Virus record (IMG/VR): IMGVR_UViG_3300031862_000007
Span: 1 to 50,840 of that record
DNA length: 50,840 nt
Source: a virus
Lineage: Duplodnaviria > Caudoviricetes
Direction: 5' to 3' (one strand)
A program made the position numbers and the translations under genes. Of the stretch, positions 1 to 50,840 are shown one piece after another; position 1 is the first letter of the stretch, and the number at the start of each line of letters is the position of its first letter. Under the pieces are notes generated by a model, which was given only the letters and a program-made list of their open reading frames with translations, made no database searches and was not told the DNA's origin.

Positions 1-135
1 AGTTAAGATTAAGTTAAGATCTAATTAAGATCTAATTAAGATTAAGATTAAGTTAAGATTAAGATTAATATAATATAGATTTAGGCTAGACTTAGACTGA
101 ATCTAGATTAGGCTTAAACTGGATCTGAATTAGAA
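1..135. repeat. AT-rich low-complexity TAAGAT/TTAAG/CTAG array
   Basis: agttaagattaagttaagatctaattaagatctaattaagattaagatt...; full copy at about 42036-42189. Confidence 0.9.
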
Positions 136-148
136 GAGGAGTCAGTTT

Positions 149-190
149 AGAAAAAAAGGGGGGGGAAACTAGTTAAACCCCCCTTTTTCT
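149..190. terminator. Hairpin, possible bidirectional terminator
   Basis: agaaaaaaagggggggg-aaactagttaaa-cccccctttttct; repeated at 42203-42244. Confidence 0.6.
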
Positions 191-314
191 GTCCATATTG
201 AGATTATAATTAATACATTTATTGATAAATAAGATTTAATAGGATAGAGGGACTTGCTAAGAGAGAAGAAGAGATCAATGCCTACTAGAGGAAGATCAGG
301 GGTGATATTAGTGA

Positions 315-325
315 TTATGTCAACT
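315..325 (+). other. XerD-arm-like half site with degenerate left arm
   Basis: TTATGTCAACT, identical to the right arm at 370-380. Confidence 0.45.
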
Positions 326-352
326 AGAGAGAGGTTATAAGGCAGGATTTAT

Positions 353-380
353 GGGTCGTATAATAACTATTATGTCAACT
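353..380 (+). other. dif-like XerC/XerD recombination site
   Basis: GGGTCGTATAA-TAACTA-TTATGTCAACT, same 11-6-11 architecture as E. coli dif GGTGCGCATAA-TGTATA-TTATGTTAAAT. Confidence 0.7.
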
Positions 381-489
381 ACATCCCATTATTAGGAGAT
401 TCGAATAAGGGGGGGCATATGGGAACTTTCCGATTGACCCTAGGTCTATTAGTGCATCACTTGCTGGGTAAATTTTATCTTTTCTCATA

Positions 490-759
490 CTAGGTCTTTT
501 CTTCATTTGCTATAAACCTCCATATTTTCCGCAATATGGTTTCTACATCATATCGTCCGTATTTCTTTCTAAACTTTTCAAGCCCTAATTTTTGTATCTC
601 TTCTGCTGTTTTTCCTATAACATTTGCGAAAAAGGTTTTCTTTTGTAGCAATGTTTCAAAGGGTTCCTTTCTTCTTTTCGCTTCCTCTTCGAGAAATCTT
701 CTAAGGTGTTGAGGAAGGTCTTCCCAATAAAGAGGCTTGTGTTCTGGTTTATTTCTCAT
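490..759 (-). CDS. Hypothetical phage protein (89 aa)
   Basis: ORF duplicated at 42544-42813; coupled to the upstream ORF. Confidence 0.7.
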   Translation of the reverse strand: MRNKPEHKPLYWEDLPQHLRRFLEEEAKRRKEPFETLLQKKTFFANVIGKTAEEIQKLGLEKFRKKYGRYDVETILRKIWRFIANEEKT

Positions 760-989
760 ACTAGGCTTTTATCTTCCAGAACAGTCTTTTTCTTTTTCAT
801 CTCACTGAGCAGTTTACCTGACAATTCCCAGCATAATAATTTTAGGTCATTTATGAACTTGACATGGTTGATGAACATTCTGATGTCGTCTTTATTGCCA
901 ACCAGGGTGATATGAGCGTTTTGAGGTAAGCAGTTGAGGGAGATTGTATGGAGGCCGAATCCGTCGATTGAGAATTTTTCTTTTTTCAT
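756..989 (-). CDS. Hypothetical protein
   Basis: GGAG RBS upstream; overlaps the start of the next gene. Confidence 0.6.
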   Translation of the reverse strand: MKKEKFSIDGFGLHTISLNCLPQNAHITLVGNKDDIRMFINHVKFINDLKLLCWELSGKLLSEMKKKKTVLEDKSLV

Positions 990-1130
990 TTTTCTCCCAA
1001 ACTGATTCTCATTTTTTCTTTCTGGGTTTTATTTTGAGCTTTACCATTTTAGGGTTTCCAACCAGCCTACCCTCAAAGTGGAACAGCGTCACATAATGGT
1101 TCATATTATTGGCTGGCTTCTTTTTATTTT

Positions 1131-1340
1131 TCAATTTGGCCTGATTATTCGTCTATCCGGCTTTGCCTTCACCATGACGAATTTCTCTGATTTTATGACT
1201 CTATCGAGGATTTGGAGGATCTCGAGGAATATCTTGGCGTCTTTTTTATTTGAGAAGAAATAGGCTTTTGATTTGGGGAGGAGGGGGGAGGTGAATATCC
1301 TGATTTTGAACCCGGCGAAACTGATGGCTTTGGGTTTCAT
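1131..1340 (-). CDS. Hypothetical basic protein
   Basis: ATG overlaps the stop of 1340-1531. Confidence 0.5.
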   Translation of the reverse strand: MKPKAISFAGFKIRIFTSPLLPKSKAYFFSNKKDAKIFLEILQILDRVIKSEKFVMVKAKPDRRIIRPN

Positions 1341-1531
1341 TAACTCGGTTCCACGAAAGCGGATATTTTCTTTTTGAGTTCGCGGATCTCACGCCGTTGT
1401 CGTCGAGTAACAAGATAGAGACGGGCGACAGAGGAGCGGGAGCGCCGGAGTTCGCGGACGACAACGAAAAGTGCCCGACGGAGCCTTTTGTCTTCATAGG
1501 GACAGCGGACAATGTCTTCTTTCACAGCCAC
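1340..1531 (-). CDS. Small coiled-coil protein ending SAFVEPS
   Basis: Diverged homolog at 45683-45874 with conserved protein sequence. Confidence 0.8.
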   Translation of the reverse strand: MAVKEDIVRCPYEDKRLRRALFVVVRELRRSRSSVARLYLVTRRQRREIRELKKKISAFVEPS

Positions 1532-1537
1532 ACTTTA

Positions 1538-1613
1538 ATCGTATCATGGAATTCCGGGGAGTCAATAGGGTTAGTATAAGATATTGACAAGTAAAGAGTT
1601 CTAAGTGTATTTT
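1538..1613. promoter_or_regulatory. Divergent sigma70-like promoter pair
   Basis: - strand TTGACT-N16-TACGAT (1565-1538); + strand TTGACA-N18-TATTTT (1584-1613); both conserved in the diverged copy at about 45880-45960. Confidence 0.55.
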
Positions 1614-1618
1614 AAGAA

Positions 1619-1840
1619 GTGGGAAATGGCATGGGCCTAAGACGGCGATATCGGGTCTGGCGATTCAAGCGCAAAATAGGGAAACTCATCAAGTTTTTTT
1701 TGGAGTTGGACAATGCCATGAAGCATAATCATCCCAAATGGAAGAGGCAACAATTTTGGAGAGATTTCGTGAAGTCAGACGAGTTCCGCAGGGGGCTTCG
1801 GCGAAAGCTTCCCGCGCTCCTCGAGGAAGACCTAAAGTAA
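1619..1840 (+). CDS. Small basic hypothetical protein (probable start 1631)
   Basis: Homologous pseudogene at 45977-46141. Confidence 0.7.
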   Translation: MGNGMGLRRRYRVWRFKRKIGKLIKFFLELDNAMKHNHPKWKRQQFWRDFVKSDEFRRGLRRKLPALLEEDLK

Positions 1841-2379
1841 CGGTCAGGGAATGGGGCGGGATTCCAGTCCTCTGTGGTGCGGAGAAGATTCCCCATCATA
1901 TCCGTCGCGGCAAGCGTCCCAAGCCGCCGATGGCTGAACTCGGAATCGAGAAGCTCAAGCCACAACAGAAGTTGGCGCTTCAAAATAAATTCGAGTTGGG
2001 AATGTCGAACCGTCAGGCTGCAATCCAGGCCGGTTATGAGGAAACAAATGCGAGCCGTGTTCTTCCCCGGCTCCTCCGAAGAAAACCTATAGTCGATGAA
2101 CTTGAGCGGCAGGGCGTAACTGATATAAAGATAGCCTCTGTTATCGCTGAAGGGCTGGACGCCATGCACCCGATAAAACCAGAGCAACCTGACCATCACG
2201 CCCGGGCGAAATTCGTCAGCGAGGCGAATAAGGTCAAGGACAATTATCCGCCGAAGAAAGTCGAGATCGAGGAGAAATCGACGAGAATCGTGCTGAGTGA
2301 CCGCGCCTATGAGAAATATCTTGAAGATAAGCGTATGAGGGAAGAAGAACGGCGCAAATTGATGGGCGAAAGTGAATGA
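1738..2379 (+). CDS. terS: Terminase small subunit (true start probably downstream, e.g. ATG 1930)
   Basis: HTH-like NRQAAIQAGY motif; immediately upstream of the large subunit. Confidence 0.75.
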   Translation: MEEATILERFREVRRVPQGASAKASRAPRGRPKVTVREWGGIPVLCGAEKIPHHIRRGKRPKPPMAELGIEKLKPQQKLALQNKFELGMSNRQAAIQAGYEETNASRVLPRLLRRKPIVDELERQGVTDIKIASVIAEGLDAMHPIKPEQPDHHARAKFVSEANKVKDNYPPKKVEIEEKSTRIVLSDRAYEKYLEDKRMREEERRKLMGESE

Positions 2380-3974
2380 TAGAAATTGTTGATAAGCAAG
2401 GCAAGCGGGCTGGGAGCCGCGAATCATGGATTTATGACAGCCTCCATGACCTCTGGATTCTCTGCCACGACGTTTTAAGTTTTCAGAAGGACATTGAGTA
2501 TCAAGACCTTAATTGGGTTCATAAGGCCCTGTGTGATTTTATCGATCCCAACAAGCAAGCCTATCGGCAACTTTTAGTTCTGATGGGACGGGATATGCTT
2601 AAAAGTTCAATCGGCAGGGGCATGATGATTCAATGGCTTCTCAATAAGGCTTACTACGGGATGTCGGGTGAGGCCTTTATCTACTGTGGCATCCTTGATC
2701 TTGCGAAACAGCATCTTGAGAAAATCGTTGATGAGATTCTCTACAACGAACTCATTCAATCTCTTTTTCACGGGAAAATCCCGGCCAAGGTCTCAGATCA
2801 GCGATTCAAGTGCCGGATTGACGAGGGCGAGATCGTTTGGCGCGGCAATATAAGAATAGCTACTGGCTCGCCAGAGAAGCCGATCTCTGGACGCCATTTT
2901 GAACTCGGAATGGTGGACAATCTCAACAATGAAGTCAACACCCGCACCGTAGAAATGCGGAAAAGCATAAATCGAAGTTGGCAAACGCTTGAATCGGTTT
3001 TTATTGAAAAATCACGCGAGGTCGTTTTTGAAACGACCTGGGCAATAGACGATGTTTCTGGAATCATTCTCGATCCTGAAAGCAAGTTTGATTATTCCAA
3101 GATAAAAAGAAAGCCCTGTCATGTTTTCATGTCGAACATAGGCTACAAAGTTTTTAGTTGTCCCGCCACAATGGGCGAAGGCGAGATAGGAACGCCTGTT
3201 TTCCCTGAAAAAATCGACTTAGAATATCTTGAGCGAAAACGTCGAAAGCAGGGATATTACCTTTATTCAAGGCTTTATGAGCTTCAGCCGATGGCTGATG
3301 AAGAGGTCATCATCCGGCCCGAGTGGTGGAATGTGCATTACGAAAGGCTCCCCATGCCCTTTATCCGCAATATCTGCGTTGATGCTGCCGGGTCAACGAA
3401 GAAGGGAAGTTCTTATTCCGGCCTTTCTATCGGAGAGTGGGACGCGGCGGGAACGCTCTATCTTCCCTGTGCGACCAAAAGAAAACTCTCTTTTAAGGAG
3501 CTTGAAAAGTGGATTGTTACTGAGTTTGACATGAGTGCTGAGGAGGGGCGGCCCGTTACCTGGGTTGGAATTGAAAAAGAAAAATTCGGCATGGATTTAA
3601 AAGCTCAAATAGAAAGTTATAGGTCAGATATTGTTATCACGCTTTGGGACAACCGGGGTATTCCTCGCGAAAAACGCCATGAGGACCTTGTCCCTTATTA
3701 TGAGAGCCGAAAGATTCTTGCAGGGCCGGGGCAAGTAGATTATGAGGATGAGCTGAGAACTTATTATAAGGGCAAAGACTCGAATGTCGATATCATTGAC
3801 ACGATTTGGGGCCATTTTCAGCTTCGGCTTCTTCCCACGAAACCAAAATTTCCTACTCCTTATGAAGCGACAAAAAGTCAACTTGATAAAGAAGTCGAGG
3901 AATTTGAAAAGCAGAGCGAGGGCGATATGCGTGACCGGATAAGAATTCCGAGGGGGATCGCTTTAAGGTTTTAG
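2376..3974 (+). CDS. terL: Terminase large subunit
   Basis: GRDMLKSS Walker-A-like motif, ISGRHF..GMVDN Walker-B region, C-terminal RNase H-like nuclease (CVDAAG, DIIDT). Confidence 0.85.
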   Translation: MIEIVDKQGKRAGSRESWIYDSLHDLWILCHDVLSFQKDIEYQDLNWVHKALCDFIDPNKQAYRQLLVLMGRDMLKSSIGRGMMIQWLLNKAYYGMSGEAFIYCGILDLAKQHLEKIVDEILYNELIQSLFHGKIPAKVSDQRFKCRIDEGEIVWRGNIRIATGSPEKPISGRHFELGMVDNLNNEVNTRTVEMRKSINRSWQTLESVFIEKSREVVFETTWAIDDVSGIILDPESKFDYSKIKRKPCHVFMSNIGYKVFSCPATMGEGEIGTPVFPEKIDLEYLERKRRKQGYYLYSRLYELQPMADEEVIIRPEWWNVHYERLPMPFIRNICVDAAGSTKKGSSYSGLSIGEWDAAGTLYLPCATKRKLSFKELEKWIVTEFDMSAEEGRPVTWVGIEKEKFGMDLKAQIESYRSDIVITLWDNRGIPREKRHEDLVPYYESRKILAGPGQVDYEDELRTYYKGKDSNVDIIDTIWGHFQLRLLPTKPKFPTPYEATKSQLDKEVEEFEKQSEGDMRDRIRIPRGIALRF

Positions 3975-4262
3975 ATGTCAGAAGCGGCAATAAAAAAAAG
4001 ATTAAGAAGAGCTGTAGAGGCTGCCGCTGAAATTCTCGATTATCCCAAAGGTTCATACGGTATCATCATGCTGGATGGGAAAACTTTCAATATTGAGGCG
4101 ATAAGCCGTATGGAAATAAGGAAAATCAGGATAGTTCTGGACGAAATTAAAAAGAACGATGAAGAACTTGTTAAAAAGTTTCCACTTCCAGGAAACTGCA
4201 CTAAGGAGATTTGGTGTAGAAGTTCCGAAGGTGGTTTTTTTATGAAAAAAATCTCTGATTGA
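3975..4262 (+). CDS. Degenerate Hjc/PD-(D/E)xK-fold protein
   Basis: C-terminus LPGNCTKEIW resembles MPPSCRKELW of 28897-29202. Confidence 0.5.
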   Translation: MSEAAIKKRLRRAVEAAAEILDYPKGSYGIIMLDGKTFNIEAISRMEIRKIRIVLDEIKKNDEELVKKFPLPGNCTKEIWCRSSEGGFFMKKISD

Positions 4263-4288
4263 AAATCTTGTCAATGTCTATTTCCCCC

Positions 4289-4350
4289 ACCCTTAGGTTC
4301 ACTTTTTGGTGACCCCTTAGGTTCACTTTTTGGTGACCCCTTGGGTTCAC
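4289..4350 (+). repeat. Tandem 24-bp repeat (about 2.6 copies) upstream of the portal operon
   Basis: ccccttaggttcactttttggtga at 4289, 4313 and partial at 4337. Confidence 0.9.
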
Positions 4351-4459
4351 CCCACTAAAAAACCAGGGCTTATATTCTAGGTGCATTGAAAGACTATCTG
4401 TCTGGATGGCGTTTCTTTCTCACAGCACTCGTCTTCGTCCTTTCCTCTAAGGAGAAAAA

Positions 4460-4717
4460 ATGAATCTTTGGTTTATCGCGCTTCTCGTTGTTGTCCTCAT
4501 TGATGCCGGGGTGATTTGTTTCATCACTCACAAGCATTACGAGGAGAAAAAAGAAATCTTCAACCGCTTCATGGCCGGCGACTACCGAGCCTATATGTAT
4601 TTCAAGGATGAAAACAAAGTTGTTGTGGATAACCTCAAAAAGAGACTTGAGGCCGAAAGGGAAAAAGTGGAAACGGAAGAAGAGCTGGAAAAAAAGAGAG
4701 CGGCTGAGGCGTTTTAA
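4460..4717 (+). CDS. Small membrane-anchored coiled-coil protein
   Basis: N-terminal hydrophobic helix; AGGAG RBS. Confidence 0.75.
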   Translation: MNLWFIALLVVVLIDAGVICFITHKHYEEKKEIFNRFMAGDYRAYMYFKDENKVVVDNLKKRLEAEREKVETEEELEKKRAAEAF

Positions 4718-4719
4718 AG

Positions 4720-6753
4720 ATGGCAGAGAAGGCAAAGGAACAGGAAAAATTCAAACCTCTCGGTCCACGTGACCTCACCGGGGACATGAAAGAGATCGTG
4801 GAGGAAACTGACTGGTATTGGCTTAATCATCCTGTCGTCGAACTCTATCATGGAGCCTGGGAAGAATATATCGCTTGGTTTGAGGGCGATCAATATTCCT
4901 ATTACAGCACAGTATTAGAGAAACTTGTAGATGTTACGCCGCTTGTGGAGCGCGAGGTCAAAAATGTTTATAACCGGATCCTCCCGATGGTTAGACAGCA
5001 GTGGGGGGAGATTCGCTATCCGCACTCTTTCTATGTCGAGCCGAACACTTCGGAGAGCGCAGACAAGAAGGCTGCGAGTATGGCCTCGGCTCTTATCGAA
5101 TACACGAATGTTCTGCGGCTTTTCAACCATAAAATAAACTACGCCAAGCTTTGGGCACTTGTTACAGGCAATGTCTTCTGGAAGGAATGGTGGAACAGGA
5201 AGCTTTACGGATTTACTGAGGGCAAGGATGGCAGGCCGATAAAAGAGCCTGGCGATGTTGATTACAATTGGGTTAATCCTTTCAATGTCCGGCCTGACCC
5301 AAATGGAAAAACGCGGGATGAGTGGCGCTGGCTCATTGAGGGCAAGCTTACGCCCAAGGCAGAGGTCGAGGAAGAGTTTGGTTTAGCGAAGGGGACTCTC
5401 CCTGCTGAAAATATCATGAGGTCGGAGATCGGACTTTTCCGACGGGCTGACCAACCCAAACCCCATGAGGAAATGATTATCAGGAAGGAAAGATGGGCAA
5501 GGCCGACGAAAAATTATCCCAAGGGTCGATTCAGTGTTATCGCGGGGGGATATCTCTGCTATGACGGCCCGAGCCCGGCGGCAGCGGATGGGGACATTCC
5601 CTATTTTCAACTCATGGGGACGATGCCGATTCTTGACGAACAGTGGGGAGACTCTTCGGTGAGGATCGGGCAAAACGCCCAGCGTCAGTTTAATCGCTTC
5701 GGTTCCATGATCGATGAGCATATTCAAAACTTTAAAGTGAAGGGCATGATCCCTAGAAATTCTATGAATTTCAGAGACAAGGTGTCCTTCTGCCGGGCCG
5801 GGGTTGACTTTGTTGAGTTCAACCCAACTGGTTACGGTAATCCTTATTTCCAGTCTCCCCCCCCGCTTCCCGAAATCATTATCCGCATGTTCCTGTTTAT
5901 GGAGAATGAGATGGAACAGGAAACATCGGTAAGAAAAACACTTCAAGGCCAGCTTCCTAAATATGCTTCCCGCGCCTCAGGTGAACTCTTCCAGGGGCTT
6001 GTCGCTCAAGACCAGAAAGTCCTCTACCCGGCCATTGAGGACCAGGAGGTGCAGTTGCAGGCCGCCATGAAATATCGGCTTGAACTCATGCAGAAGCATT
6101 ATAGCCTACCGCGAATGGTCAAAATTACGGGAAAAAATAAAGCGACTTCCATCGCCTATATCAAAGGTGCAGAGATCGCCAACAACACTGATGTCAGAAT
6201 CCGCTCCGGCGTCGCACTCATGCAGAGCATCGAGGCAAAACGGGAGGTCGTCAGCTCCATGATTCAGCAAAACCTCATTACTGACCCGAAGAAAGCACTT
6301 GAGCTTCTCGACGTGAAGGGCATTGAGGAATACATGGAAGATGAGTATGTGGATGAGCGCCAGGGCCAGCGCATCATAGAACTCTTCAAGCAGGGGAAGG
6401 CTTATATCGAGGTCCAGCCCGACGATAACCACGCCGTTCTCTATACGGTTTTCAATAACTTCCGCAAGACCGAGGAGTTTGACACATTGCCGAAGGATGC
6501 TCAGGACAAAATCCAGAAAAGGATTGATGGTCATAAGGCCTATCTGCCGGAGATCCAGAAGGCCACGCAGCTACAACCAGCCGTCACGACCCCAGCTGAG
6601 GCTGAGGTTCCCGCTGAAACTGGCGGGGCAGGACTTGGAGCAGGGGCCGGAGCCGCAGGAGCATTGGAACAGTTAAGGAAATTGCCTCCCGAGGTCGTTC
6701 AGGAGGCCATGCGGCAAGTTGCGGCTGAAAGTCAAGGTCAAGGAGCAATGTAA
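4720..6753 (+). CDS. Portal protein (P22/T7-like)
   Basis: 677 aa; position; WFEGDQY, VYNRILPMV, VNPFNVRPDP motifs typical of podoviral portals. Confidence 0.85.
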   Translation: MAEKAKEQEKFKPLGPRDLTGDMKEIVEETDWYWLNHPVVELYHGAWEEYIAWFEGDQYSYYSTVLEKLVDVTPLVEREVKNVYNRILPMVRQQWGEIRYPHSFYVEPNTSESADKKAASMASALIEYTNVLRLFNHKINYAKLWALVTGNVFWKEWWNRKLYGFTEGKDGRPIKEPGDVDYNWVNPFNVRPDPNGKTRDEWRWLIEGKLTPKAEVEEEFGLAKGTLPAENIMRSEIGLFRRADQPKPHEEMIIRKERWARPTKNYPKGRFSVIAGGYLCYDGPSPAAADGDIPYFQLMGTMPILDEQWGDSSVRIGQNAQRQFNRFGSMIDEHIQNFKVKGMIPRNSMNFRDKVSFCRAGVDFVEFNPTGYGNPYFQSPPPLPEIIIRMFLFMENEMEQETSVRKTLQGQLPKYASRASGELFQGLVAQDQKVLYPAIEDQEVQLQAAMKYRLELMQKHYSLPRMVKITGKNKATSIAYIKGAEIANNTDVRIRSGVALMQSIEAKREVVSSMIQQNLITDPKKALELLDVKGIEEYMEDEYVDERQGQRIIELFKQGKAYIEVQPDDNHAVLYTVFNNFRKTEEFDTLPKDAQDKIQKRIDGHKAYLPEIQKATQLQPAVTTPAEAEVPAETGGAGLGAGAGAAGALEQLRKLPPEVVQEAMRQVAAESQGQGAM

Positions 6754-7004
6754 TGGCTAATCTTTTAAGTCTCAAGGAAGTCTCAAACGAGTTGAATTTC
6801 TCGGAAGAGGAAATCATGGAACTCGTCAGGCAGAAGAGAATCCCTTATCTCTATTTTCCGGCCAAGGACGAATATCTTTTTCCCGATACGGATGTTCGGC
6901 AGGCCCTGAGTCCACGGCCAAAGAAGGAAGAGGCGTCAGCTTTTGTGGAAAAGAAACAAAACGAGCCGGTAGTCGCAAGACGAGGCCGTCCAAAAAAAAT
7001 ATAA
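6753..7004 (+). CDS. Excisionase-like HTH DNA-binding protein with AT-hook-like tail
   Basis: LLSLKEVSNELNFSEEEIMELVRQKRIP; C-terminal RRGRPKK. Confidence 0.65.
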   Translation: MANLLSLKEVSNELNFSEEEIMELVRQKRIPYLYFPAKDEYLFPDTDVRQALSPRPKKEEASAFVEKKQNEPVVARRGRPKKI

Positions 7005-7019
7005 AAGGAGAAATTTTTC

Positions 7020-8039
7020 ATGGAAAGCACAGCTTCAGAGGAAAAGGCCGAAAGTCGGCCCTCCGGTATGAAGGGGATTGCTGAGGGGATTAGGACATTG
7101 GTCGCTGAAAGCACTGCCAGCCCCGCTGCGGCGAAAGAGGCAGTTGTGGAAAGCGAAGAGAAACCCTGCGTTGAATGTGAAGAGAAAGAAGCGGAAGCGG
7201 CAAAGGCAGCCAAAAAGAGCCGATTGTTTATCGTGGACAAGGAAACAGGACAGGAAATTCCTGCTGTTTTTACGTCCGAAGGTAAAGACTATGAGGCAGA
7301 TTCGGTTGACAAGCTCAAGACTTGGACCGGACTCGGTATTCATGCCAATCGGCGACTTGAGGAACTCAAGAAATTTGAGGAACCCGTGAAGATGGTTCTC
7401 AAGGCGATTGAGGAAGGTCGTATTGTCATCAAGGACAAAGTCGATTCTTCACCTCCCGTGAAGGAAAAGGTGGAAGAGGCGGCGTCTGAAGATGAGGAAG
7501 ACTTCATCACCGACCCGGCTGTTCTCAAGGAAAGGCAAAAAAGGCAGGCCTTAGAGGGCGAGGTCAAGGAACTCAAAAAGACGATTGATTCGCTCAAGGT
7601 CTTTGTTGTGAGCAGCAAGACCGATGAGATGAAGAAGGAGATCGAATCCGAGATCGAGCAACTCTCAAAAACCTACCCTTTGGGAAAAAAGAGAAGCAAA
7701 GAAGTTTGGAAACTTCTGGCCGAGATTGGTGAAGATGGGGCTCCGGCGTACACCGTCGAGACCGCCATGAAGACCGTTCACGAACAGAACCTCAGTGATT
7801 TTCAAGAGTGGACGAAGGATCATCCCGAATTCATTGAGAAAGACAAAATCAAGAAAGAGGGAATCCAGGAATACCTCAAGGACAAAGAGGAAAAGGAAAA
7901 GGCCCCCGTCTCCGCACCTTCCGCTACGGGAACAGGTGCGGTCGTGGAAGCTAAGCCCGAAATAAAGGGCATGAAGGATGCCGTCTCCAAGATGAAGGAT
8001 TTTCTCAAGCAGTCAACTAAAGCAGGGAAAAGTCTATAA
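7020..8039 (+). CDS. Capsid scaffolding protein
   Basis: Highly charged, coiled-coil protein between portal and capsid. Confidence 0.7.
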   Translation: MESTASEEKAESRPSGMKGIAEGIRTLVAESTASPAAAKEAVVESEEKPCVECEEKEAEAAKAAKKSRLFIVDKETGQEIPAVFTSEGKDYEADSVDKLKTWTGLGIHANRRLEELKKFEEPVKMVLKAIEEGRIVIKDKVDSSPPVKEKVEEAASEDEEDFITDPAVLKERQKRQALEGEVKELKKTIDSLKVFVVSSKTDEMKKEIESEIEQLSKTYPLGKKRSKEVWKLLAEIGEDGAPAYTVETAMKTVHEQNLSDFQEWTKDHPEFIEKDKIKKEGIQEYLKDKEEKEKAPVSAPSATGTGAVVEAKPEIKGMKDAVSKMKDFLKQSTKAGKSL

Positions 8040-8054
8040 GACAGGAGGTTTTCG

Positions 8055-9296
8055 ATGTTCAGCATCGAGGTTGAGGACAAAATCTATAACGAGATGATTT
8101 CCAAGGGAGTCGTCTCCGAGGTGAGAGGGCTGTCGAAATTAGCAGACAAGATCAAGAAGGACTTCGATAAAATCGACGCACACGGGAAATATATCACCCA
8201 AAAGATGAATTTCGGCGGATCTCAGGCCTTCGGAGCAAAATCCAACAGCTCCTATCCCACTGGGCAGCAGGTCACTCCGGGTGAGGCCTTGCTTCGGGTC
8301 AAGCGGTTCGAGATGTTCACCATGCACTTTGATGGACTTTCCTTGGAACTTGCGGAAAAAGGCGGCTCTCCCATTGATCCCGAGGATTTTGAACAGCAGG
8401 AACTTTTTAAGGGCATGGGCGATGACATGAGTCGCCAGCTTATGCTCGATGGCTCAGGCGTCATCTGCCAGGCCAACGGAGCAGGGAGCGGGACAACGGC
8501 CCTCGTGGTCGATTCACTATATTTTTCAAAGCCGGCAAGTCTTTTCTTCAATCCAGGGAGAGTGATTGACGCTTATCTTGCCGCGGCTCAAGAGATCAAC
8601 AGCATCGCCATCGCAGCAATCGCCTCAGATGTGCAGTTGACGCTCGCAAGCAACCAGACATGGAGTGACGATTCAAATATTTACGGCGAGGACGTTTACA
8701 CTGGCACAGAGGCGGTCGGCAAGGGCGAGATCATGGGGCTTTTGGGGATCGTCAGAGACACAGACCCGCCAGCACCTAATGCTGCAGGGCTCCAGGGACT
8801 GCCGGTAGCCAGTTACCCGCTTTGGAAGTCCAAAGTTTGGGGCAATGGCGGCGTCGCACGGCCTTTTGATGAAGACCTGATGATCAAGGCGCTACAGTAT
8901 GCCGAAAAGAGAGGCAAGATTACCGTTCTCCTCATCACCGAGGGCATTTTCAGATTGTGGAAACAGCACCTTGACGCTTATAAAGTGCTCGGTTCCGAGC
9001 CCAAGGCGATGTGGGGAGGCTGGGTCGCGCTTCCGTTCTATTATGACGGCCGGATTATCCCGATGGTGCAAGACCTGTATGTTCCCGATGGAAACATCAT
9101 GGGTCTCGCTGAAGATGAATTTACGCTCCACTTGACAAATCCAGCCTGGGTCACCTGGGAAAAGGTCGGAGGCTCGAGACTTCAGAAGGTCGCCAATAAG
9201 AACGAGTATGTTTCCGAAGGACATATCTTCGGCAACCTGGGCGTCCGCAGCCGCGCTCCTCATTTCCGCATCACAGATATTGAGGAACCTGAATAA
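8055..9296 (+). CDS. Major capsid protein
   Basis: 413 aa, strong AGGAGG RBS, position after scaffold, followed by a terminator. Confidence 0.85.
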   Translation: MFSIEVEDKIYNEMISKGVVSEVRGLSKLADKIKKDFDKIDAHGKYITQKMNFGGSQAFGAKSNSSYPTGQQVTPGEALLRVKRFEMFTMHFDGLSLELAEKGGSPIDPEDFEQQELFKGMGDDMSRQLMLDGSGVICQANGAGSGTTALVVDSLYFSKPASLFFNPGRVIDAYLAAAQEINSIAIAAIASDVQLTLASNQTWSDDSNIYGEDVYTGTEAVGKGEIMGLLGIVRDTDPPAPNAAGLQGLPVASYPLWKSKVWGNGGVARPFDEDLMIKALQYAEKRGKITVLLITEGIFRLWKQHLDAYKVLGSEPKAMWGGWVALPFYYDGRIIPMVQDLYVPDGNIMGLAEDEFTLHLTNPAWVTWEKVGGSRLQKVANKNEYVSEGHIFGNLGVRSRAPHFRITDIEEPE

Positions 9297-9304
9297 GAAT
9301 AAGT

Positions 9305-9334
9305 AAGGGGGGCGCTTCGGCGCCTCCCTTTCTT
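9305..9334 (+). terminator. Intrinsic terminator after the capsid gene
   Basis: aaggggggcgc-TTCG-gcgcctccctt followed by tctt; cUUCGg loop. Confidence 0.8.
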
Positions 9335-9346
9335 GGAGATGAGGAC

Positions 9347-9766
9347 ATGGCACTTTTAAGTCCGCCAAAATCGTTTGTGCGGGAACTTAAACGGATCGAC
9401 TCTCGGCTCTATCCGCTTTACTTCGACCGTTTCAGAAAATGGATGATCGTAAGTCCTTGCCAAAGGCCCGTGGCGGGTGTCACCGAATATGACCCAACCT
9501 CGGAAAAGCACGTAGCCGTTGAATTCCTGATTGAAGACGAGAATGGCAGGCCGCTGCCTCTTTCGAGCGCCGTTCTCCATGTGGTCAAGCTGGCCTTCTG
9601 TGATACGACTCGAAGAAAACCGTTCAGCTTCTACTGGAAGGCGTTCAAGGAAAGTGAAAGACGAAGGCAGTTTGTGGCAGCGCGTGAGAGGCAGTCGATT
9701 TTCAAGGAAGCGGGTCGGGAGATCAAGAAGTTTAAGACAAGCGAAACTTTTGTTTTAGGGAGGTAA
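9347..9766 (+). CDS. Hypothetical phage protein
   Basis: ORF with GAGG RBS in the structural operon. Confidence 0.7.
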   Translation: MALLSPPKSFVRELKRIDSRLYPLYFDRFRKWMIVSPCQRPVAGVTEYDPTSEKHVAVEFLIEDENGRPLPLSSAVLHVVKLAFCDTTRRKPFSFYWKAFKESERRRQFVAARERQSIFKEAGREIKKFKTSETFVLGR

Positions 9767-9768
9767 AA

Positions 9769-10152
9769 ATGTATGTAGGCTATAGTCGCAAAGAAGTTGA
9801 AAGGGCTGGAGCGGTAATCACGAAGCTCTATTCCGGGACAGTCTCGGCAAGCGGAGACTCAAAGTCCGCTTATAAGTGGATTCCTCCTTTCATCAGCCGG
9901 GCGAATCTTTTCCTGAAGGCCACAGAAAACTCGGGCACGGCCACGATGGATGTGAAAGTCGTAACAATGCACCCGAGGGTCGCGGGACACACGACAGACT
10001 GGTATGACCTTCAGGCCTTCACTCAGCTTTCGGCGACTGGAAAGGAAAAGAAAAGCCTCGCCAGTGGCCTCGGCGATAAGCTCGCCGTGGTCTGGACTGT
10101 TACCGGGACAGGAAACTGGACGATTGAGGTTTACGCAGAGCTGAAGCTTTAG
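9769..10152 (+). CDS. Putative virion beta-sandwich (decoration-like) protein
   Basis: Beta-rich Thr/Ser/Gly composition; GGAGG RBS. Confidence 0.55.
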   Translation: MYVGYSRKEVERAGAVITKLYSGTVSASGDSKSAYKWIPPFISRANLFLKATENSGTATMDVKVVTMHPRVAGHTTDWYDLQAFTQLSATGKEKKSLASGLGDKLAVVWTVTGTGNWTIEVYAELKL

Positions 10153-10167
10153 AAAATTTAAGGGAAA

Positions 10168-10191
10168 GGGGGAGGGCTAATGCCCTTCCCC
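10168..10191 (+). terminator. GC hairpin (terminator or processing site)
   Basis: gggggagggc-taat-gcccttcccc. Confidence 0.45.
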
Positions 10192-10213
10192 GAATCTTCT
10201 TAAGGAGTTTGAT

Positions 10214-10672
10214 ATGAGAAAAACTCGAATTCTGTTTTTGGCGATTTTCCTTATTTTCTCTTTATGTATTGTTTCAGATACGGCCCCAACGAGATACAAA
10301 TTTCTGACGAGCGATATCACGGTTCCGATCAACACAACTTGGGTCGAGGGGACAGACTTCACATCCAAAACAATCATGCTTGCCTATGCACAATCAGCAA
10401 CCCTGACTTTTTACGTCAAAGGAAACAATGCGGCATGTTCAAAAGATGTAATTTTCAAGTTTGTGGCGTTTGATTCTTTAAGGAACAAATGGGACACGAT
10501 TGATGCTCTGGGTGGATCGGGTGTGACAGTTACAGCTAATGGAACTACGGCAGTTCAGATAACAAAGCTTCTCTATGCTTATTTTGAGAAGATCAAGTTA
10601 TTGTCGGTTCAGAATCAGGAGACCGTAGCTGGATATACGGTTGATGTGAATGTCTCGATATTTATTAAGTGA
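10214..10672 (+). CDS. Beta-rich protein with N-terminal signal peptide
   Basis: MRKTRILFLAIFLIFSLCIVS leader; AGGAG RBS. Confidence 0.7.
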   Translation: MRKTRILFLAIFLIFSLCIVSDTAPTRYKFLTSDITVPINTTWVEGTDFTSKTIMLAYAQSATLTFYVKGNNAACSKDVIFKFVAFDSLRNKWDTIDALGGSGVTVTANGTTAVQITKLLYAYFEKIKLLSVQNQETVAGYTVDVNVSIFIK

Positions 10673-11670: not shown

Positions 11671-11678
11671 GGTAAGCC

Positions 11679-37558: not shown

Positions 37559-37560
37559 TT

Positions 37561-37590
37561 AGGGCAGGGGATGGTTGCGACCCCCACCCT
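37561..37590. other. Intergenic GC hairpin
   Basis: agggcagggg...cccccaccct. Confidence 0.35.
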
Positions 37591-37651
37591 TCGATTCTGA
37601 GGAGTTTATGGGAAGAAAGTTTGAGAGGAGGATAGCAACCGTATCTTCTCC

Positions 37652-37885: not shown

Positions 37886-37915
37886 TCTTGCTCCTCAATA
37901 AGTTTAGTTTTATTT

Positions 37916-38287
37916 TTACCGGCAGAGACCTGTCTTGGTAAATCCGATTTCTTTCCAATGATGAGAAATATGGTGTGATTGTGATAAAAATAAACTTAGA
38001 TTCGTCGGCCTATCGTCGTTTGTTATCCCGTTTTTATGATGGACAATTTCTTTTGGTAAAATAAATCTGCCGATTATTTTTTCCATGATTAAATGTGATC
38101 GTCGGACATAACCATTCTTGTCGGCATATGGATGATTTATAGACTTGACAAGGATATAGCCGCTTTTATCCGATGTAACTCCTCCCCTCCAACGATGATT
38201 TAGTTTTCCTAATTTTGATAAACCGTTATTATTATAATTTTTGTAGTTGACATAATATTCCTTATGTAACCCATATGTTATTCGCAC
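37916..38287 (-). CDS. HNH endonuclease
   Basis: NHRWRGG, HPYA..NGYV, VHHKNGITNDDRPTNL. Confidence 0.8.
   Translation of the reverse strand: MRITYGLHKEYYVNYKNYNNNGLSKLGKLNHRWRGGVTSDKSGYILVKSINHPYADKNGYVRRSHLIMEKIIGRFILPKEIVHHKNGITNDDRPTNLSLFLSQSHHISHHWKEIGFTKTGLCR
38245..38272 (-). other. Second dif-like site, inverted relative to 353/42407
   Basis: - strand GGGTTACATAA-GGAATA-TTATGTCAACT. Confidence 0.65.
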
Positions 38288-38487
38288 AGTTCTCCCAACT
38301 CTATTCCTAAAGAATAACTTATGCTCTTCAATGTTTCAAGCTCAGGATTCTTTGATATCCCATTTTCAAGCCGAGAGATGTGTACTCGACTGCATCCAGC
38401 TACTTTTGCAAGATAAGCTTGGCTCCAGCCCAATTCTCTTCTTTTTTTCTTTATTTTTTTGCCGATGTTGGTTCTTGAATATTTCAT
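38278..38487 (-). CDS. XRE-family HTH regulator (Cro-like)
   Basis: IKKKRRELGWSQAYLAKVAGCSRVHISRLENG. Confidence 0.9.
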   Translation of the reverse strand: MKYSRTNIGKKIKKKRRELGWSQAYLAKVAGCSRVHISRLENGISKNPELETLKSISYSLGIELGELCE

Positions 38488-38495
38488 TTCTACCC

Positions 38496-38587
38496 TTATG
38501 TTATATTATGTTATAACAATTTCATAAAAAGTCAAGTAGTTTTTTTAAATATTTTTCTATTGACACTCAAAAAAATCGTGATAAAAT
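38496..38587. promoter_or_regulatory. Divergent promoter/operator region
   Basis: + strand TTGACA(38560)-N16-TAAAAT with extended TG; - strand TTGACT near 38535; tandem TTATGTTATA repeats and TGTTATAACA palindrome at 38496-38518. Confidence 0.6.
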
Positions 38588-41273: not shown

Positions 41274-41597
41274 TTAATAATCTTCTGGAAACATGAGAGG
41301 ATAGGCGCTTGTCTCATTGAGGACGACGAAGAAATCCAAGCCGTTGACCTTGACCTTGTAGAACCAATCCGTCCCCTTTTCGCGCTGAATCTTCATCACC
41401 TCAAGCTTCGCGCCGATCGTAGCTTCAGGTTTTTGCCAGAGAATTAGCAGAAAGTTATGGAGAGAATAATTCCTGAACCCACCGCGCCAGCGCTTGACAA
41501 ACTCCGTCAGCTTTTCCGGTGACACAACAAGCGAAGCCTCTAACTCCGCGAGCTTGCCCTGTAATTGAGACCGTCTTTCTTTACTGTCCATGATCAA
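41274..41597 (-). CDS. Truncated ArdC-N-like domain fused to an unrelated C-terminus
   Basis: FRNYSLHNFLLILWQKPEAT, then abrupt change to ...YPLMFPEDY. Confidence 0.55.
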   Translation of the reverse strand: MIMDSKERRSQLQGKLAELEASLVVSPEKLTEFVKRWRGGFRNYSLHNFLLILWQKPEATIGAKLEVMKIQREKGTDWFYKVKVNGLDFFVVLNETSAYPLMFPEDY

Positions 41598-41970: not shown

Positions 41971-42406
41971 GACCCCTCCCGAAAAATAATTAAAAAGGAA
42001 TTCGCGCCCCCCGCGCGCGCGCCCGAGTAGCCCCATTAAGATCTAGCTAAGTCTAGTTAAGATTAAGTTAAGATCTAATTAAGATCTAATTAAGATTAAG
42101 ATTAAGTTAAGATTAAGATTAATATAATATAGATTTAGGCTAGACTTAGACTGAATCTAGATTAGGCTTAAACTGGATCTGAATTAGAAGAGGAGTCAGT
42201 TTAGAAAAAAAGGGGGGGGAAACTAGTTAAACCCCCCTTTTTCTGTCCATATTGAGATTATAATTAATACATTTATTGATAAATAAGATTTAATAGGATA
42301 GAGGGACTTGCTAAGAGAGAAGAAGAGATCAATGCCTACTAGAGGAAGATCAGGGGTGATATTAGTGATTATGTCAACTAGAGAGAGGTTATAAGGCAGG
42401 ATTTAT

Positions 42407-42434
42407 GGGTCGTATAATAACTATTATGTCAACT
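42407..42434 (+). other. dif-like site (copy within the repeat)
   Basis: GGGTCGTATAA-TAACTA-TTATGTCAACT. Confidence 0.7.
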
Positions 42435-42543
42435 ACATCCCATTATTAGGAGATTCGAATAAGGGGGGGCATATGGGAACTTTCCGATTGACCCTAGGTC
42501 TATTAGTGCATCACTTGCTGGGTAAATTTTATCTTTTCTCATA

Positions 42544-42813
42544 CTAGGTCTTTTCTTCATTTGCTATAAACCTCCATATTTTCCGCAATATGGTTTCTAC
42601 ATCATATCGTCCGTATTTCTTTCTAAACTTTTCAAGCCCTAATTTTTGTATCTCTTCTGCTGTTTTTCCTATAACATTTGCGAAAAAGGTTTTCTTTTGT
42701 AGCAATGTTTCAAAGGGTTCCTTTCTTCTTTTCGCTTCCTCTTCGAGAAATCTTCTAAGGTGTTGAGGAAGGTCTTCCCAATAAAGAGGCTTGTGTTCTG
42801 ATTTATTTCTCAT
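42544..42813 (-). CDS. Duplicate of 490-759
   Basis: Identical except one residue. Confidence 0.7.
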   Translation of the reverse strand: MRNKSEHKPLYWEDLPQHLRRFLEEEAKRRKEPFETLLQKKTFFANVIGKTAEEIQKLGLEKFRKKYGRYDVETILRKIWRFIANEEKT

Positions 42814-43103: not shown

Positions 43104-43113
43104 GCGGTTTTAG

Positions 43114-47799: not shown

Positions 47800-48045
47800 A
47801 TGGAGCGAAAAATGATCAGCAGACTAAGAGAAATTAGATTTCGAAGGAATGTCTCTCAACTTTTGTTATCGCAAAGGACAGGGATCTGCCAATCGACTTT
47901 ATCGAAGATTGAGCACGGCTGGAGTAGGGGAACATCCGAACAGCGAAAGAGAATAGCAAGGTTTTTTAAGGTTGACAAAAACTGGATTTTTCCGGAAGAG
48001 AAACAGATTCATAAGAAATCGAATGAGCGAAAATTCAAACTTTGA
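47800..48045 (+). CDS. XRE-family HTH regulator
   Basis: LREIRFRRNVSQLLLSQRTGICQSTLSKIEHG. Confidence 0.85.
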   Translation: MERKMISRLREIRFRRNVSQLLLSQRTGICQSTLSKIEHGWSRGTSEQRKRIARFFKVDKNWIFPEEKQIHKKSNERKFKL

Positions 48046-49792
48046 CTTCAAGCCCGGCACGAAAAGCAAACTGATTACGGTTTATCGTTACGAGGATGAG
48101 GCGGGGGAGGTTGTCTTTGAAAAGGAGCGTCATGAACCAAAATCTTTCCGCTTCAGACGCCAGGTCAACGGCAAGCGGGTTTATAATCTCAACGGAATCG
48201 AGCCCGTCCCTTATCGGCTGCCGAAATGGAAAGACGCGCCCTCCGTGATAATATCTGAAGGCGAAAAAGATGCGGACGCTATTGCGGACCTTGGATTGGT
48301 CTCTACCTCGGGTCCCTTCGGGGCCAGCTCCTGGCCTACAGAACTCACGCCCAGGTTCAAGGATAAGCAGGTTTATATCTGCTACGACATTGGACAAGAA
48401 AAGGCCGCTGGATATGTGGCGGCTTCACTTTATGGCACAGCAAAAGAAATCAGGATCGTCCACCTGCCCTCGCTACGCCATGAGTTTGACATCTCGGACC
48501 ACCTCGTTTTGTTTTCCCACCGTCTAGGAAAGATTAAGGCCATCCAGGGTCTTCTCCGGGATGCGGAGAAATACAACCCCCCCGGAGTTATCGAAACCCA
48601 CGAGCCTGAGTTGAGGTCTATACAAGAGCTCTGTATTGACCATGATTTTCTTAACCTCTACATCGATTCCATCTCCCGGGTTACGGATGCGCCAAAAGTT
48701 TTTATCTTGTTTTCGGGGATCGGCCTGCTCAGTGGGATCTTAAACAAGATGTGGTTTTCCTATCCGAGACGGACAAACCTTAACCTTTATCTTTTACTGC
48801 TGGCCCCTTCTACATTTTACCGGAAATCGGTTTGCATCGATATCGCCAGCGATTATTTAGCGGAGGTGAACCCGGAACTTATTATGCCAGAATCATTCTC
48901 TCCCGAGGCTCTAATTGAAATTCTGTCCAAAAAGCGCCGAGGTTTAATATTATGGCGAGAGCTCATCCAGGTTAAAGAATTTAATTTTGGCAGCGACTAT
49001 TCCAAAGCATTGCCTTCGCTACTAACCGACATCTATGATTTTAAGGCGCGGCTGACGCGATGGACAAAAGAAGAAAAAGAGACAACCGCCGAAAACCCAA
49101 CAATTTCGATTTTATCCGCTGGAATTCAAAGCTGGCTTGTCTCGGGGATCCGACAAGAAGACTTCATGGGCGGAATCTGGACTAGATTTCTTTTTATTCC
49201 AGCGCCGGACCAGGAGACTAAACCTTATCGGCGGCCCAACCGATTCTCACCCTTGCCAGCCATAATTGACCGCCTTCGAGAGCTGGACTCAATCGAAGGT
49301 CGGGAACTTGACCTTAACAAAATCTTCCCCTTGCTCGATGCCTGGGGGGCTGCTCATCAGGCCCAGGCAATAAAGATTGAAAATGACTTGATGCAAGCCA
49401 ACTTTTCAAGGCTTGAAGTCGCCTTACTCAAGATAGCTGGCATTCTCGAACTTGCCGATGACCTAACTTCTACTTCTATCTCACCAAAAGCCTTCACGGA
49501 AGCCGTGAAAATCATCGACTTCCTCAAGGGCGAATTGTCTATATTTTTTGAAGAGCACGTGGTTTTTGGCAGTGAGGAAAAAAACAGGGCTGCGGTTATC
49601 CGCCTTTTAAAAAAACATGGTCAACTACTTCACAGCGATTTGCAAAGATTAGCCCACATAAGAAAATCGCAAGACCTCTATTCAATCATGACACAATTGA
49701 AAGACGAAGACCGAGCCAAAGAAGATTTAGTCCCCCCCACTTCTCAAGGCGGAAAGCCAGGCAAACTATATTCTTTGAAAGGAAGAAAATGA
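47972..49792 (+). CDS. TOPRIM primase fused to a DUF3987/YfjI-like P-loop domain (probable start 48023)
   Basis: YRYEDEAG, IISEGEKDAD, ICYD; NLYLLLLAPSTFYRKS, GIWTRFLF. Confidence 0.8.
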   Translation: MTKTGFFRKRNRFIRNRMSENSNFDFKPGTKSKLITVYRYEDEAGEVVFEKERHEPKSFRFRRQVNGKRVYNLNGIEPVPYRLPKWKDAPSVIISEGEKDADAIADLGLVSTSGPFGASSWPTELTPRFKDKQVYICYDIGQEKAAGYVAASLYGTAKEIRIVHLPSLRHEFDISDHLVLFSHRLGKIKAIQGLLRDAEKYNPPGVIETHEPELRSIQELCIDHDFLNLYIDSISRVTDAPKVFILFSGIGLLSGILNKMWFSYPRRTNLNLYLLLLAPSTFYRKSVCIDIASDYLAEVNPELIMPESFSPEALIEILSKKRRGLILWRELIQVKEFNFGSDYSKALPSLLTDIYDFKARLTRWTKEEKETTAENPTISILSAGIQSWLVSGIRQEDFMGGIWTRFLFIPAPDQETKPYRRPNRFSPLPAIIDRLRELDSIEGRELDLNKIFPLLDAWGAAHQAQAIKIENDLMQANFSRLEVALLKIAGILELADDLTSTSISPKAFTEAVKIIDFLKGELSIFFEEHVVFGSEEKNRAAVIRLLKKHGQLLHSDLQRLAHIRKSQDLYSIMTQLKDEDRAKEDLVPPTSQGGKPGKLYSLKGRK

Positions 49793-50660: not shown

Positions 50661-50714
50661 CAGGCTTATGTTCTATTTGAAAAAAGACCCTATTCTAAAG
50701 TGGTGAGTGACAAA

Positions 50715-50840
50715 ATGAACTGGCTTCTCACAGTCAAAGAGCTTGCCGATCTTCTTCACATTCACCCTAAGACTGTTTATCGATGGAAACAAAATGGAAA
50801 GCTTCCCTTTTTAATGAAGAATGGTCTAGTAAGATTCAAG
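50715..50840 (+). CDS. Excisionase-like HTH protein (truncated by the window end)
   Basis: MNWLLTVKELADLLHIHPKTVYRWKQNGKLP...VRF. Confidence 0.8.
   Translation, partial: MNWLLTVKELADLLHIHPKTVYRWKQNGKLPFLMKNGLVRFK

Follow-up and report, generated by a model that had tools for sequence, protein, structure and literature searches.

The 50,840-base window analyzed here is the entire IMG/VR virus record IMGVR_UViG_3300031862_000007 (classed as linear, CheckV completeness 100), and it carries a 28-bp sequence at positions 353-380 that resembles dif, the chromosomal site at which the host's XerC and XerD recombinases (XerCD) resolve chromosome dimers. This 28-mer is a conserved phage-borne mimic of the dif of a host lineage and not a chance match, and it is probably a genuine XerCD substrate, since its conserved arms are those of the host dif, its spacer is free to vary, it occurs independently of orientation, and XerC and XerD are encoded in a genome of the host class. 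The reading favored here, to which a probability of roughly 0.4 is given, is that host XerCD acts at the site on the phage's own DNA. Both the binding and cleavage of the site by XerCD and the choice of reaction that matters are inferred.

The 28-mer was found twice in the window, at the two places given by a first-pass annotation of this DNA. Bases 1-759 recur at 42055-42813 with one mismatch (at 747), so that the second copy of the site belongs to a repeat of the contig and is not independent. Beyond the 759 bp the two sequences diverge, and the contig is therefore described as a 42,054-bp tailed-phage unit (unit A) followed by 8 kb of a second element (element B). The right arm occurs once more in identical form at 315-325, as had also been reported, where it is part of a weaker, accessory site 55 bp (54-55 bp) upstream of the main site and in the same orientation. 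The dif-like sites of the window and the features of the repeated block are as follows.

353..380, plus strand: main dif-like site, with XerC-type arm GGGTCGTATAA, spacer TAACTA and XerD-type arm TTATGTCAACT
298..325, plus strand: accessory site, AGGGGTGATAT-TAGTGA-TTATGTCAACT, with a degenerate left arm and a perfect XerD-type arm (315-325)
42407..42434, plus strand: main site, second copy, inside the repeated block
42352..42379, plus strand: accessory site, second copy, inside the repeated block
38245..38272, minus strand: third dif-like site, GGGTTACATAA-GGAATA-TTATGTCAACT, inverted relative to the main site and directly downstream of a Cro-like helix-turn-helix (HTH) gene
1..759, no strand: repeated block, first copy, with TTAAGAT-type short repeats, a hairpin, the dif-like pair and an open reading frame (ORF) of 89 amino acids (aa)
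42055..42813, no strand: repeated block, second copy, joining unit A to element B
42217..42237, minus strand: terminator-like hairpin with a G8/C6 stem, between the short-repeat array and the dif-like pair (other copy at 163-183)
409..426, plus strand: GGGGGGGCATATGGGAAC (reverse of TCCCATA..C7), recurring beside the site in relatives, by eye
490..759, minus strand: 89-aa ORF with no assigned function, the last part of the shared block

When as many as 3 mismatches were allowed, the window had no match to the main 28-mer beyond its two copies, 0 of 100 shuffles gave any match and the expected number of exact matches was 0. A looser pattern (ATAA-N6-TTATGTHAANT, at most 1 mismatch) gave 5 matches in the window against 0.09 expected. 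The 11-6-11 layout of a XerC/XerD dif site, proposed in the first-pass annotation, held up in that the arms match the dif of the host class (see below) and 5 of the 6 inner-arm positions (7-12 against 17-22) are complementary by eye; an excerpt of PMC3025954 gives more than four complementary inner-arm positions as a criterion for dif. By eye, 20 of the 28 positions are identical to the E. coli K12 dif printed in a portion of PMC2731167. The placement of the site in non-coding DNA was likewise correct, as bases 1-489 are free of ORFs of at least 60 aa. The main site lies between the minus-strand hairpin and the 89-aa ORF, in the main gap without genes that separates the early operon's end from the gene for the small terminase subunit (terS), 1.4 kb upstream of the latter. 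Promoter prediction called none on the main site, and a promoter reading of it was dropped.

Conservation was assessed in a phage family collected with the portal protein of unit A as probe, the capsid protein alone giving no relatives. The probe returned 111 relatives at E ≤1e-5, many on contigs of 40-45 kb, and an identical portal was seen on a contig of 63,158 bp; an alignment of 30 of them led to 32 viral loci and, from all of genome_contigs, 7 genome loci, three of which are titled Candidatus (Ca.) Aminicenantes. Both window arms in exact form with any spacer gave 0 matches in viral_contigs and genome_contigs. A first pattern, in which ATAA and the right arm were fixed, matched 14 of 39 loci, and the left arm, although unconstrained in this pattern, was conserved as [GAT][GT]GTCG[CT]ATAA next to a variable spacer. 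The pattern GTCGCATAA-N6-TTATGTCAACT with at most 3 mismatches then gave 24 matches in 20 of 40 family sequences (561,250 bases) and none when reversed. Nineteen loci were informative, in that their portal identity was 40% or more and their sequence extended 5 kb or more upstream of the portal gene (L003/L013 and L015/L021 being near-duplicates); in 17 of these the site lies 3.4-9.2 kb upstream of the portal gene, and it is absent from L011 and L012, so that the site is not peculiar to the window, a point on which the first-pass annotation had made its proposal depend.

The family form of the site is GTCGCATAA, six variable bases and TTATGTMAACT, and in relatives it always lies between a homolog of the ORF at 41274-41597 and terS. 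It is found in either orientation, reversed relative to these neighbors in L001, L002, L004, L005, L025, L038 and L039, and these flips fit a recombination site and not a promoter or operator. The third site of the window has a counterpart in L004, at the homologous place adjoining a homolog of ORF 38278-38487. Inspection of the flanks by eye placed the TCCCATA..C7 motif beside the site in the window and in L001, L002, L004, L005, L038 and L039, and the copy at 409-426 is a possible packaging or end signal. The 89-aa ORF at 490-759 is not conserved beside the site in relatives, and the idea that it encodes a conserved Xer-activation factor was dropped.

The exact form GTCGCATAA-N6-TTATGTMAACT was found at 63 sites in 61 IMG/VR contigs, of which 8 belong to the portal family and 53 lie outside it. 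These 63 viral sites have 50 kinds of spacer, with 0.01-0.63 bits of information at positions 12-16. An extra XerD-type arm is present 37-40 nt upstream in 5 of 54 non-redundant viral sites and downstream in 0 of 54; the paired arrangement of accessory and main site also occurs in L003/L013, L018, L024 and L028, and the extra arm is a feature of the sub-lineage to which the window belongs.

The arms lead back to a host lineage. The pattern TCGYATAA-N6-TTATGTNAACT was found in 61 of 151 sampled genomes of the GTDB class that includes the genome G001, in 55 of them as a single copy (reversed control, 0); the portal family itself was found in 6 of 339 genomes of this class. The single-copy site of the class reads [GA][GT]GTCGCATAA-N6-TTATGT[CA]AACT, from which the window site differs at position 7 only (T for C), and position 17 (A), adjoining the XerD arm, is common to hosts and phages. 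The comparison with a host chromosomal dif suggested by the first-pass annotation was thus positive at the level of the class of G001. In the host-class genome G001 the chromosomal dif candidate is C4:374,035-374,062 (GAGTCGCATAA-CGTTTA-TTATGTAAACT), with a homolog in G002 that has similar flanks, and both XerC (TIGR02224, 357.1 bits, NCBIfam cut-off 335.15) and XerD (TIGR02225, 362.1 bits, NCBIfam cut-off 329.6) are encoded, by genes on C10 and C5. On a 2.1-Mb contig of G070 the site coincides with a switch in coding-strand bias: a value of 0.60 gives way to 0.40, and the split that separates the two best is at most 20 kb from the site (Mann-Whitney p = 0.0024).

Spacers were compared between phages and hosts. 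Spacers ending in TATA were seen in 16 of 32 stored host sites versus 2 of 63 viral sites, and three prophages share few spacer positions with the dif of their own host (G001, 2 of 6; G002, 4 of 6; G054, 2 of 6). In a second phylum the site was found in 41 of 206 genomes, in 40 of them once, with many different spacers (40 of 205 if G446, which is flagged unpublished and on which no result depends, is left out). Host spacers therefore differ by lineage, so that viral spacers can be contrasted safely with host spacers only for phages with a known host, and the general argument that viral spacers are unlike host spacers was weakened for this reason. A search of all species genomes for the window spacer between the arms gave three matches (L215-L217), all in genomes titled Ca. 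Eisenbacteria and each single in its genome, one of them at 1.458 Mb of a 3.12-Mb chromosome; a fourth genome of the phylum is G570. The window site agrees with these chromosomal sites at 26 of 28 positions, the whole spacer and the rare T at position 7 included (L215 and L217), or at 25 of 28 (L216). These genomes have 66-68% GC versus 45.6% for the phage, and the portal family was found in 0 of 206 genomes of the phylum; Ca. Eisenbacteria was therefore judged unlikely as host, and the spacer match is a lead, not a host identification.

Further observations were made around chromosomal dif-like sites. An inverted XerD-arm-like motif, AGTTGACATGAATAG or a sequence near it, lies about 55 nt to the right of the chromosomal dif in all of L215-L217. 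The host-class genome G138 (loci L091, L092 and L094) has a cluster on contig C103, where a 7-kb stretch has three copies in direct orientation and an inverted one follows 14 kb further on, and two more copies on C96; two of these sites share a left flank, and the arrangement looks like an array of IMEXs, the integrative mobile elements that exploit Xer, or like dif modules. In G027, contigs C138 and C176 (L086 and L087) have one left flank and dif with two different right flanks, of which that of C176 has host genes and the 1.4-kb one of C138 could represent either strain variation or an inserted element. The possibility that G027 carries a phage at dif was dropped, as the alternative flank holds host genes.

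The site is retained with and without an integrase. A tyrosine integrase was found in 3 of 10 records of the portal family (G344, G345 and G349), and the integrase-free, site-bearing members that are complete or nearly so include unit A, G341 (direct terminal repeats, 100%), G342 (99%) and G340 (91%). Among 21 other site-bearing viral contigs of at least 31 kb, 5 have an integrase, and five of the seven with terminal repeats are without one. Genomes that have both integrase and site are G001, G002, G054, G345 and G349, and L013, with 73% portal identity and the same paired site, has an integrase about 2.6 kb from the pair. The prophage of G001 (C4:649,481-693,044) has at its two ends, at 649,481 and 693,023, the copies of a 22-bp direct repeat, of which the second is the 3' end of a tRNA-Ser(tga) gene and adjoins a 357-aa integrase. 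The dif-like site of this prophage is intact at 653,396-653,423, at a depth of 3.9 kb, and 280 kb separate it from the chromosomal dif candidate; the prophage of G002 is syntenic with it and G054:C8 has the same plan. The dif-like site is thus not the attachment (att) site of the integrase. Because integrase-bearing relatives keep the site, and because the G001 prophage at tRNA-Ser holds it intact, the site does not simply stand in for an integrase, and phages whose lysogeny does not require Xer retain it. No family copy integrated at a host dif was found among the genomes searched (6 of 339 of the class and 0 of 206 of the other phylum carry the family), which is a weak negative as the metagenome-assembled genomes are fragmentary; the only family prophages with host flanks, those of G001 and G002, have a tRNA-linked att and their own integrase.

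In the window itself, a six-frame hidden Markov model (HMM) search gave 0 matches to PF00589, PF00239, PF00665, PF07508, PF13614 and PF02195, a set that covers tyrosine and serine recombinases, the rve transposase, the large-serine "Recombinase" domain, AAA_31 ParA and ParB_N. Pfam and PHROG scans of the window ORFs gave no integrase, resolvase or ParA, and no partition-type Pfam family was found among the scanned ORFs, the ParM and TubZ models not being searched separately. The window also has no tRNA gene. The earlier statement that the DNA encodes no integrase, resolvase or ParA therefore stands for the 42-kb unit, and no full-length recombinase was found anywhere in the window, while the description of the phage as integrase-less fails for the adjoining element B, where the truncated N-terminus of an HTH_17-tyrosine integrase begins at 50700; relatives vary in this respect.

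Element B (42814-50840) directly follows the shared 759-bp block with its identical site. Its only similarity to unit A lies at 45682-46112 (about 77% to 1339-1766), and it is not a variant of unit A. It encodes a P63C/anti-repressor-like protein, a SocA/Panacea-domain protein, a primase, a PC4-like protein and the start of an HTH-integrase, of which two are placed as follows.

47972..49792, plus strand: primase-type protein of element B (DUF3987; PHROG DNA primase)
50700..50840, plus strand: first 47 codons of an HTH_17-tyrosine integrase, an ORF open at its 3' end in the last 141 bases, the gene being cut by the window end

The 47 residues share 49% identity (E 8e-13) with the N-terminus of the 465-aa integrase P0112 of L102, and in the relatives L099 and L102 the gene order is primase, small ORFs, PC4-like gene and then a 453-465-aa HTH_17-tyrosine integrase; the cut integrase gene belongs to element B and not to the 42-kb phage unit. 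Element B looks like a satellite or integrative element. A metagenome scan with its primase, which did not include the window's own contig, gave only short relatives, none with dif-like sites. On G116:C30 (L088), an integrase at 160-1464 with 38% identity to the HTH-integrase of the B type lies about 9 kb from a dif-like site (10392-10419), with the same spacing and relative orientation as in element B of the window.

The junction of the two units was followed in Logan contigs from four sediment runs mapped on 36000-50840, the depths being rough per-contig means. In run X1 the depth was about 14-21 for unit A, about 8-13 for element B and 38-73 for the shared stretch at 40.5-42.9 kb, and in run X2 it was 19.3 for unit A (36000-37979) versus 2.4-4.7 for element B (42930-45404). 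As their depths differ, A and B are separable entities, and several genotypes carry the shared block. The region is shattered into short contigs in the four runs and none bridges the whole repeat; the join of A, block and B is either a true cointegrate or an assembly chimera across the 759-bp repeat. The first-pass annotation had suggested looking for contigs that join host DNA at the 28-mer, and among the Logan contigs listed there was no joint or long loose end in the spacer, a result that counts neither for nor against integration. The Logan variants listed form clusters at 42339-42390 and 42457-42474, none of them inside 42407-42434, which is only a hint of conservation of the 28-mer at the population level.

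In the favored reading, the site, with a spacer private to each phage lineage, would be present in two copies between which host XerCD recombines. Such recombination could close terminally redundant phage DNA into a circle, resolve or interconvert circular multimers, and fuse or separate replicons that share it, unit A and element B being an example. Such a use within the phage's own DNA is favored because the site is kept with or without an integrase, because it adjoins the packaging region, and because the spacers of the prophages with known hosts would hinder exchange with the host dif. The first-pass annotation had proposed that the phage either integrates at dif or resolves multimers; processing of its own DNA is the better fit of the two, and integration at dif, for which no integrated copy was found, is the less probable. 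Several points weigh against the favored reading. A lambdoid phage that packages from concatemers has no obvious need for dimer resolution, and the location of the site inside a terminal redundancy is a guess. The window, L004, L024/G342 and G003:C214 each have at least two dif-like sites, with different spacers and often inverted, and simple resolution does not explain multiple sites per genome. The argument from private spacers is firm only for the three prophages with a known host, and the full spacer match with the Ca. Eisenbacteria dif is the pattern that an integrating element would show. The integrase-free genomes have no ParA-type genes (AAA_31, 0 of 5) and ParB_N in 1 of 5, so that a stable plasmid prophage is not supported, and the GC skew of G070 is flat and noisy with no terminus signal at the site.

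Lysogeny of the IMEX type is one alternative. The site of integrase-free members such as unit A would then be an attP, and host XerCD would insert the whole phage at the chromosomal dif. Unit A encodes no recombinase yet has a lambdoid early region with a Cro-type HTH regulator, its relatives are temperate, and it has no partition genes that would permit a plasmid state. The 26 of 28 positions shared with the single-copy dif of the Ca. Eisenbacteria genomes, including the whole spacer and the rare T, also speak for insertion, as does the A at position 17 beside the XerD arm that hosts and phages have in common; moreover, the arrangement of the window, where site-bearing blocks lie on both sides of one phage unit and a further element with this site comes next, resembles the tandem IMEX arrays described in a portion of PMC12715192. 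However, the clade with the matching dif differs strongly in GC, none of 206 genomes of its phylum has the portal family, the prophages of G001 and G002 sit at a tRNA-linked att with their own integrase and not at dif, and integrase-bearing relatives retain the site, including L013 with its paired architecture. In addition, the homology between A and B stops 379 bp to the right of the site and not at the site, and the Logan contigs listed have no loose end at the spacer. On this evidence insertion at dif is considered unlikely. Exchange of modules or replicons, in which the sites would be the borders of exchangeable cassettes or fusion points and XerCD would drive mosaicism and phage-satellite cointegrates (A+B) instead of acting directly in the life cycle of the phage, is less likely again. 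It would account for the inverted pairs 3.4-5 kb apart that bracket the immunity and small-ORF region in three genomes (window, 38245-38272 minus and 42407-42434 plus; L004, 3105 plus and 6605 minus; G003:C214, 19218 minus and 24222 plus), for the identical block and site on the primase-, PC4-like- and HTH-integrase-bearing element B, and for the similar combination on G116:C30. The separability of A and B by depth, the G138 clusters with a shared flank, and the pair L156/L195, whose left flanks are 97% and right flanks 67% identical with different spacers, are in line with such exchange. The different spacers within one genome should nevertheless block exchange by Xer, in most genomes only one site is strong, the homology between A and B has its boundary elsewhere than at the site, assembly across a repeat common to several genotypes may have produced the A-to-B join as a chimera, and the pair analysis draws on very few cases (5 of all pairs among 62 sites).

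It was also considered that the 28-mer is no Xer substrate at all and only resembles dif, being a motif bound by a phage protein (terminase at pac, or a regulator) or a transcription signal. The position upstream of terS, beside the TCCCATA..C7 motif and short repeats that are possible packaging signals, would suit such a role, the XerD-type arm has TTGACA on its opposite strand, and three sites per genome are unusual for a crossover site. Against this, both 11-bp arms recur in the host class at its single-copy chromosomal site, the spacer being free, the orientation reverses relative to the same neighbors, no -10 element lies at a usable distance, and the motif occurs in the 53 viral contigs that do not belong to the portal family and need not have terminases or regulators in common. 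This makes a role unrelated to Xer the most doubtful of the explanations weighed here.

Among known systems, that of phage P1 is close to the favored reading, as Cre cyclizes terminally redundant P1 DNA and resolves dimers at one fixed site, loxP, near the packaging region; the proposed job is the same, but P1 encodes its recombinase whereas none is encoded here and the site copies the arms of the host dif. The pdif modules of Acinetobacter plasmids are cassettes bracketed by inverted dif-like sites, and in the window, L004 and G003:C214 a segment of 3.4-5 kb likewise has inverted dif-like sites at its two borders, although the spacers of the paired sites differ here and the carrier is a phage. 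With the chromosomal dif acted on by FtsK-activated XerC/XerD in dimer resolution, the window site shares the 28-bp 11-6-11 layout and the host-class arms, but it lies on a 50.8-kb virus record and not at a replication terminus, so that it is not a chromosomal dif proper; its spacer is unlike most host-class dif spacers, and its sub-lineage adds a half-degenerate second site 54-55 bp upstream.

Hijacking of Xer is documented for plasmids, filamentous phages, microviruses and double-jelly-roll phages. Excerpts of PMC12715192 and PMC2731167 describe the IMEX class, and PMC7062461 covers gokushoviruses. Like the IMEXs (CTXphi, VGJphi, TLCphi, dif-type double-jelly-roll vibriophages, gokushovirus prophages and the gonococcal genetic island), unit A has no recombinase and has a dif-like site that matches the host arms. 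The IMEX phages listed are filamentous, microviral or double-jelly-roll, whereas unit A is a 42-kb tailed double-stranded DNA phage, and here no dif-integrated copy was found, and relatives with an integrase of their own have the site within the prophage. In the sites of filamentous phages the XerD arm is often degenerate and the spacer longer, according to an excerpt of PMC3025954, whereas both arms of the window site are near-canonical and its spacer is 6 bp. The cer and psi sites, at which XerCD acts with PepA and ArgR/ArcA (role as given in a portion of bioRxiv 10.64898/2026.02.23.706985), would be a parallel in that an extrachromosomal replicon borrows host XerCD at a dif-type core, possibly also with extra DNA on the XerC side. 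The accessory element of the window lineage is, however, a second XerD-type arm at a fixed distance, seen in 5 of 54 sites, while the accessory region of cer/psi spans about 180 bp, and the carrier here is a virus without partition genes. An excerpt of PMC8026635 states that one or two recombinases related to XerCD are encoded by most circular plasmid prophages and are believed to function in dimer resolution; those phages thus encode the enzyme, and unit A does not.

The literature, covered mostly at the level of abstracts, gave no description of a tailed phage that uses host Xer enzymes at a dif-like site, which is not proof of absence. A tailed-phage family that keeps a host-type dif with or without an integrase, as do dozens of other viral contigs, points to a general, unstudied dependence of tailed phages on the chromosome-resolution machinery of the host. 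The site could serve as a sequence-only marker for host prediction, because dif arms track host lineage. It may also explain how phages and hitch-hiking elements fuse and separate, and it gives a concrete biochemical test for uncultured hosts. In its broadest form the proposal would be that tailed phages of uncultured sediment bacteria, together with a primase-integrase element, routinely hijack XerC/XerD through a dif copy with a lineage-private spacer beside the packaging region, closing, resolving or fusing genomes, including A+B cointegrates, and that integrase-free members may insert a 42-kb genome at the host dif as the first tailed IMEXs; taken as a whole, this is rather unlikely.

Unit A (45.6% GC) encodes a tailed phage with a P22-type portal. 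Its placed genes are as follows.

1738..2379, plus strand: small terminase subunit (terS), a weak PHROG match; conserved neighbor on one side of the site
2376..3974, plus strand: large terminase subunit (TerL), from tblastn
4720..6753, plus strand: portal protein (PF16510, precomputed label), the probe for the phage family
8055..9296: capsid protein
38278..38487, minus strand: Cro/CI-type HTH regulator, from Pfam/PHROG scans
41274..41597, minus strand: 107-aa early-operon ORF; conserved neighbor on the other side of the site

The unit also encodes beta-helix domains, carbohydrate-binding domains and an amidase endolysin, and its minus-strand, lambdoid-style early arm comprises the Cro-type HTH protein, a RecT-like protein, an exonuclease, a single-stranded DNA-binding protein, an O/DnaD-like replication initiator and two HNH proteins. 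Positions 1-12000 and 41000-50840 had no Megablast match among GenBank phages, and tblastn of TerL and portal against cultured phages gave merely 22-26% identity and no clue to the host. The sole promoter-like match in 41900-42900 is at 41943-41970 on the minus strand. It reads TTGACA-16-TAAGAT, is preceded by a TG, and lies immediately upstream of ORF 41594-41944, the first of the early ORFs, which makes it a candidate early leftward promoter. In the structural region, a joint scan of the ORFs found one ORF with PT-HINT, Intein_splicing and Hom_end_hint domains and one small ORF with an excisionase-type HTH_17 domain. A direct repeat of 191 nt is present three times at 16554-17752, the other copies being 81% and 60% identical to the first, inside an 863-aa ORF (16074-18665) that probably encodes a repetitive tail or fiber protein.

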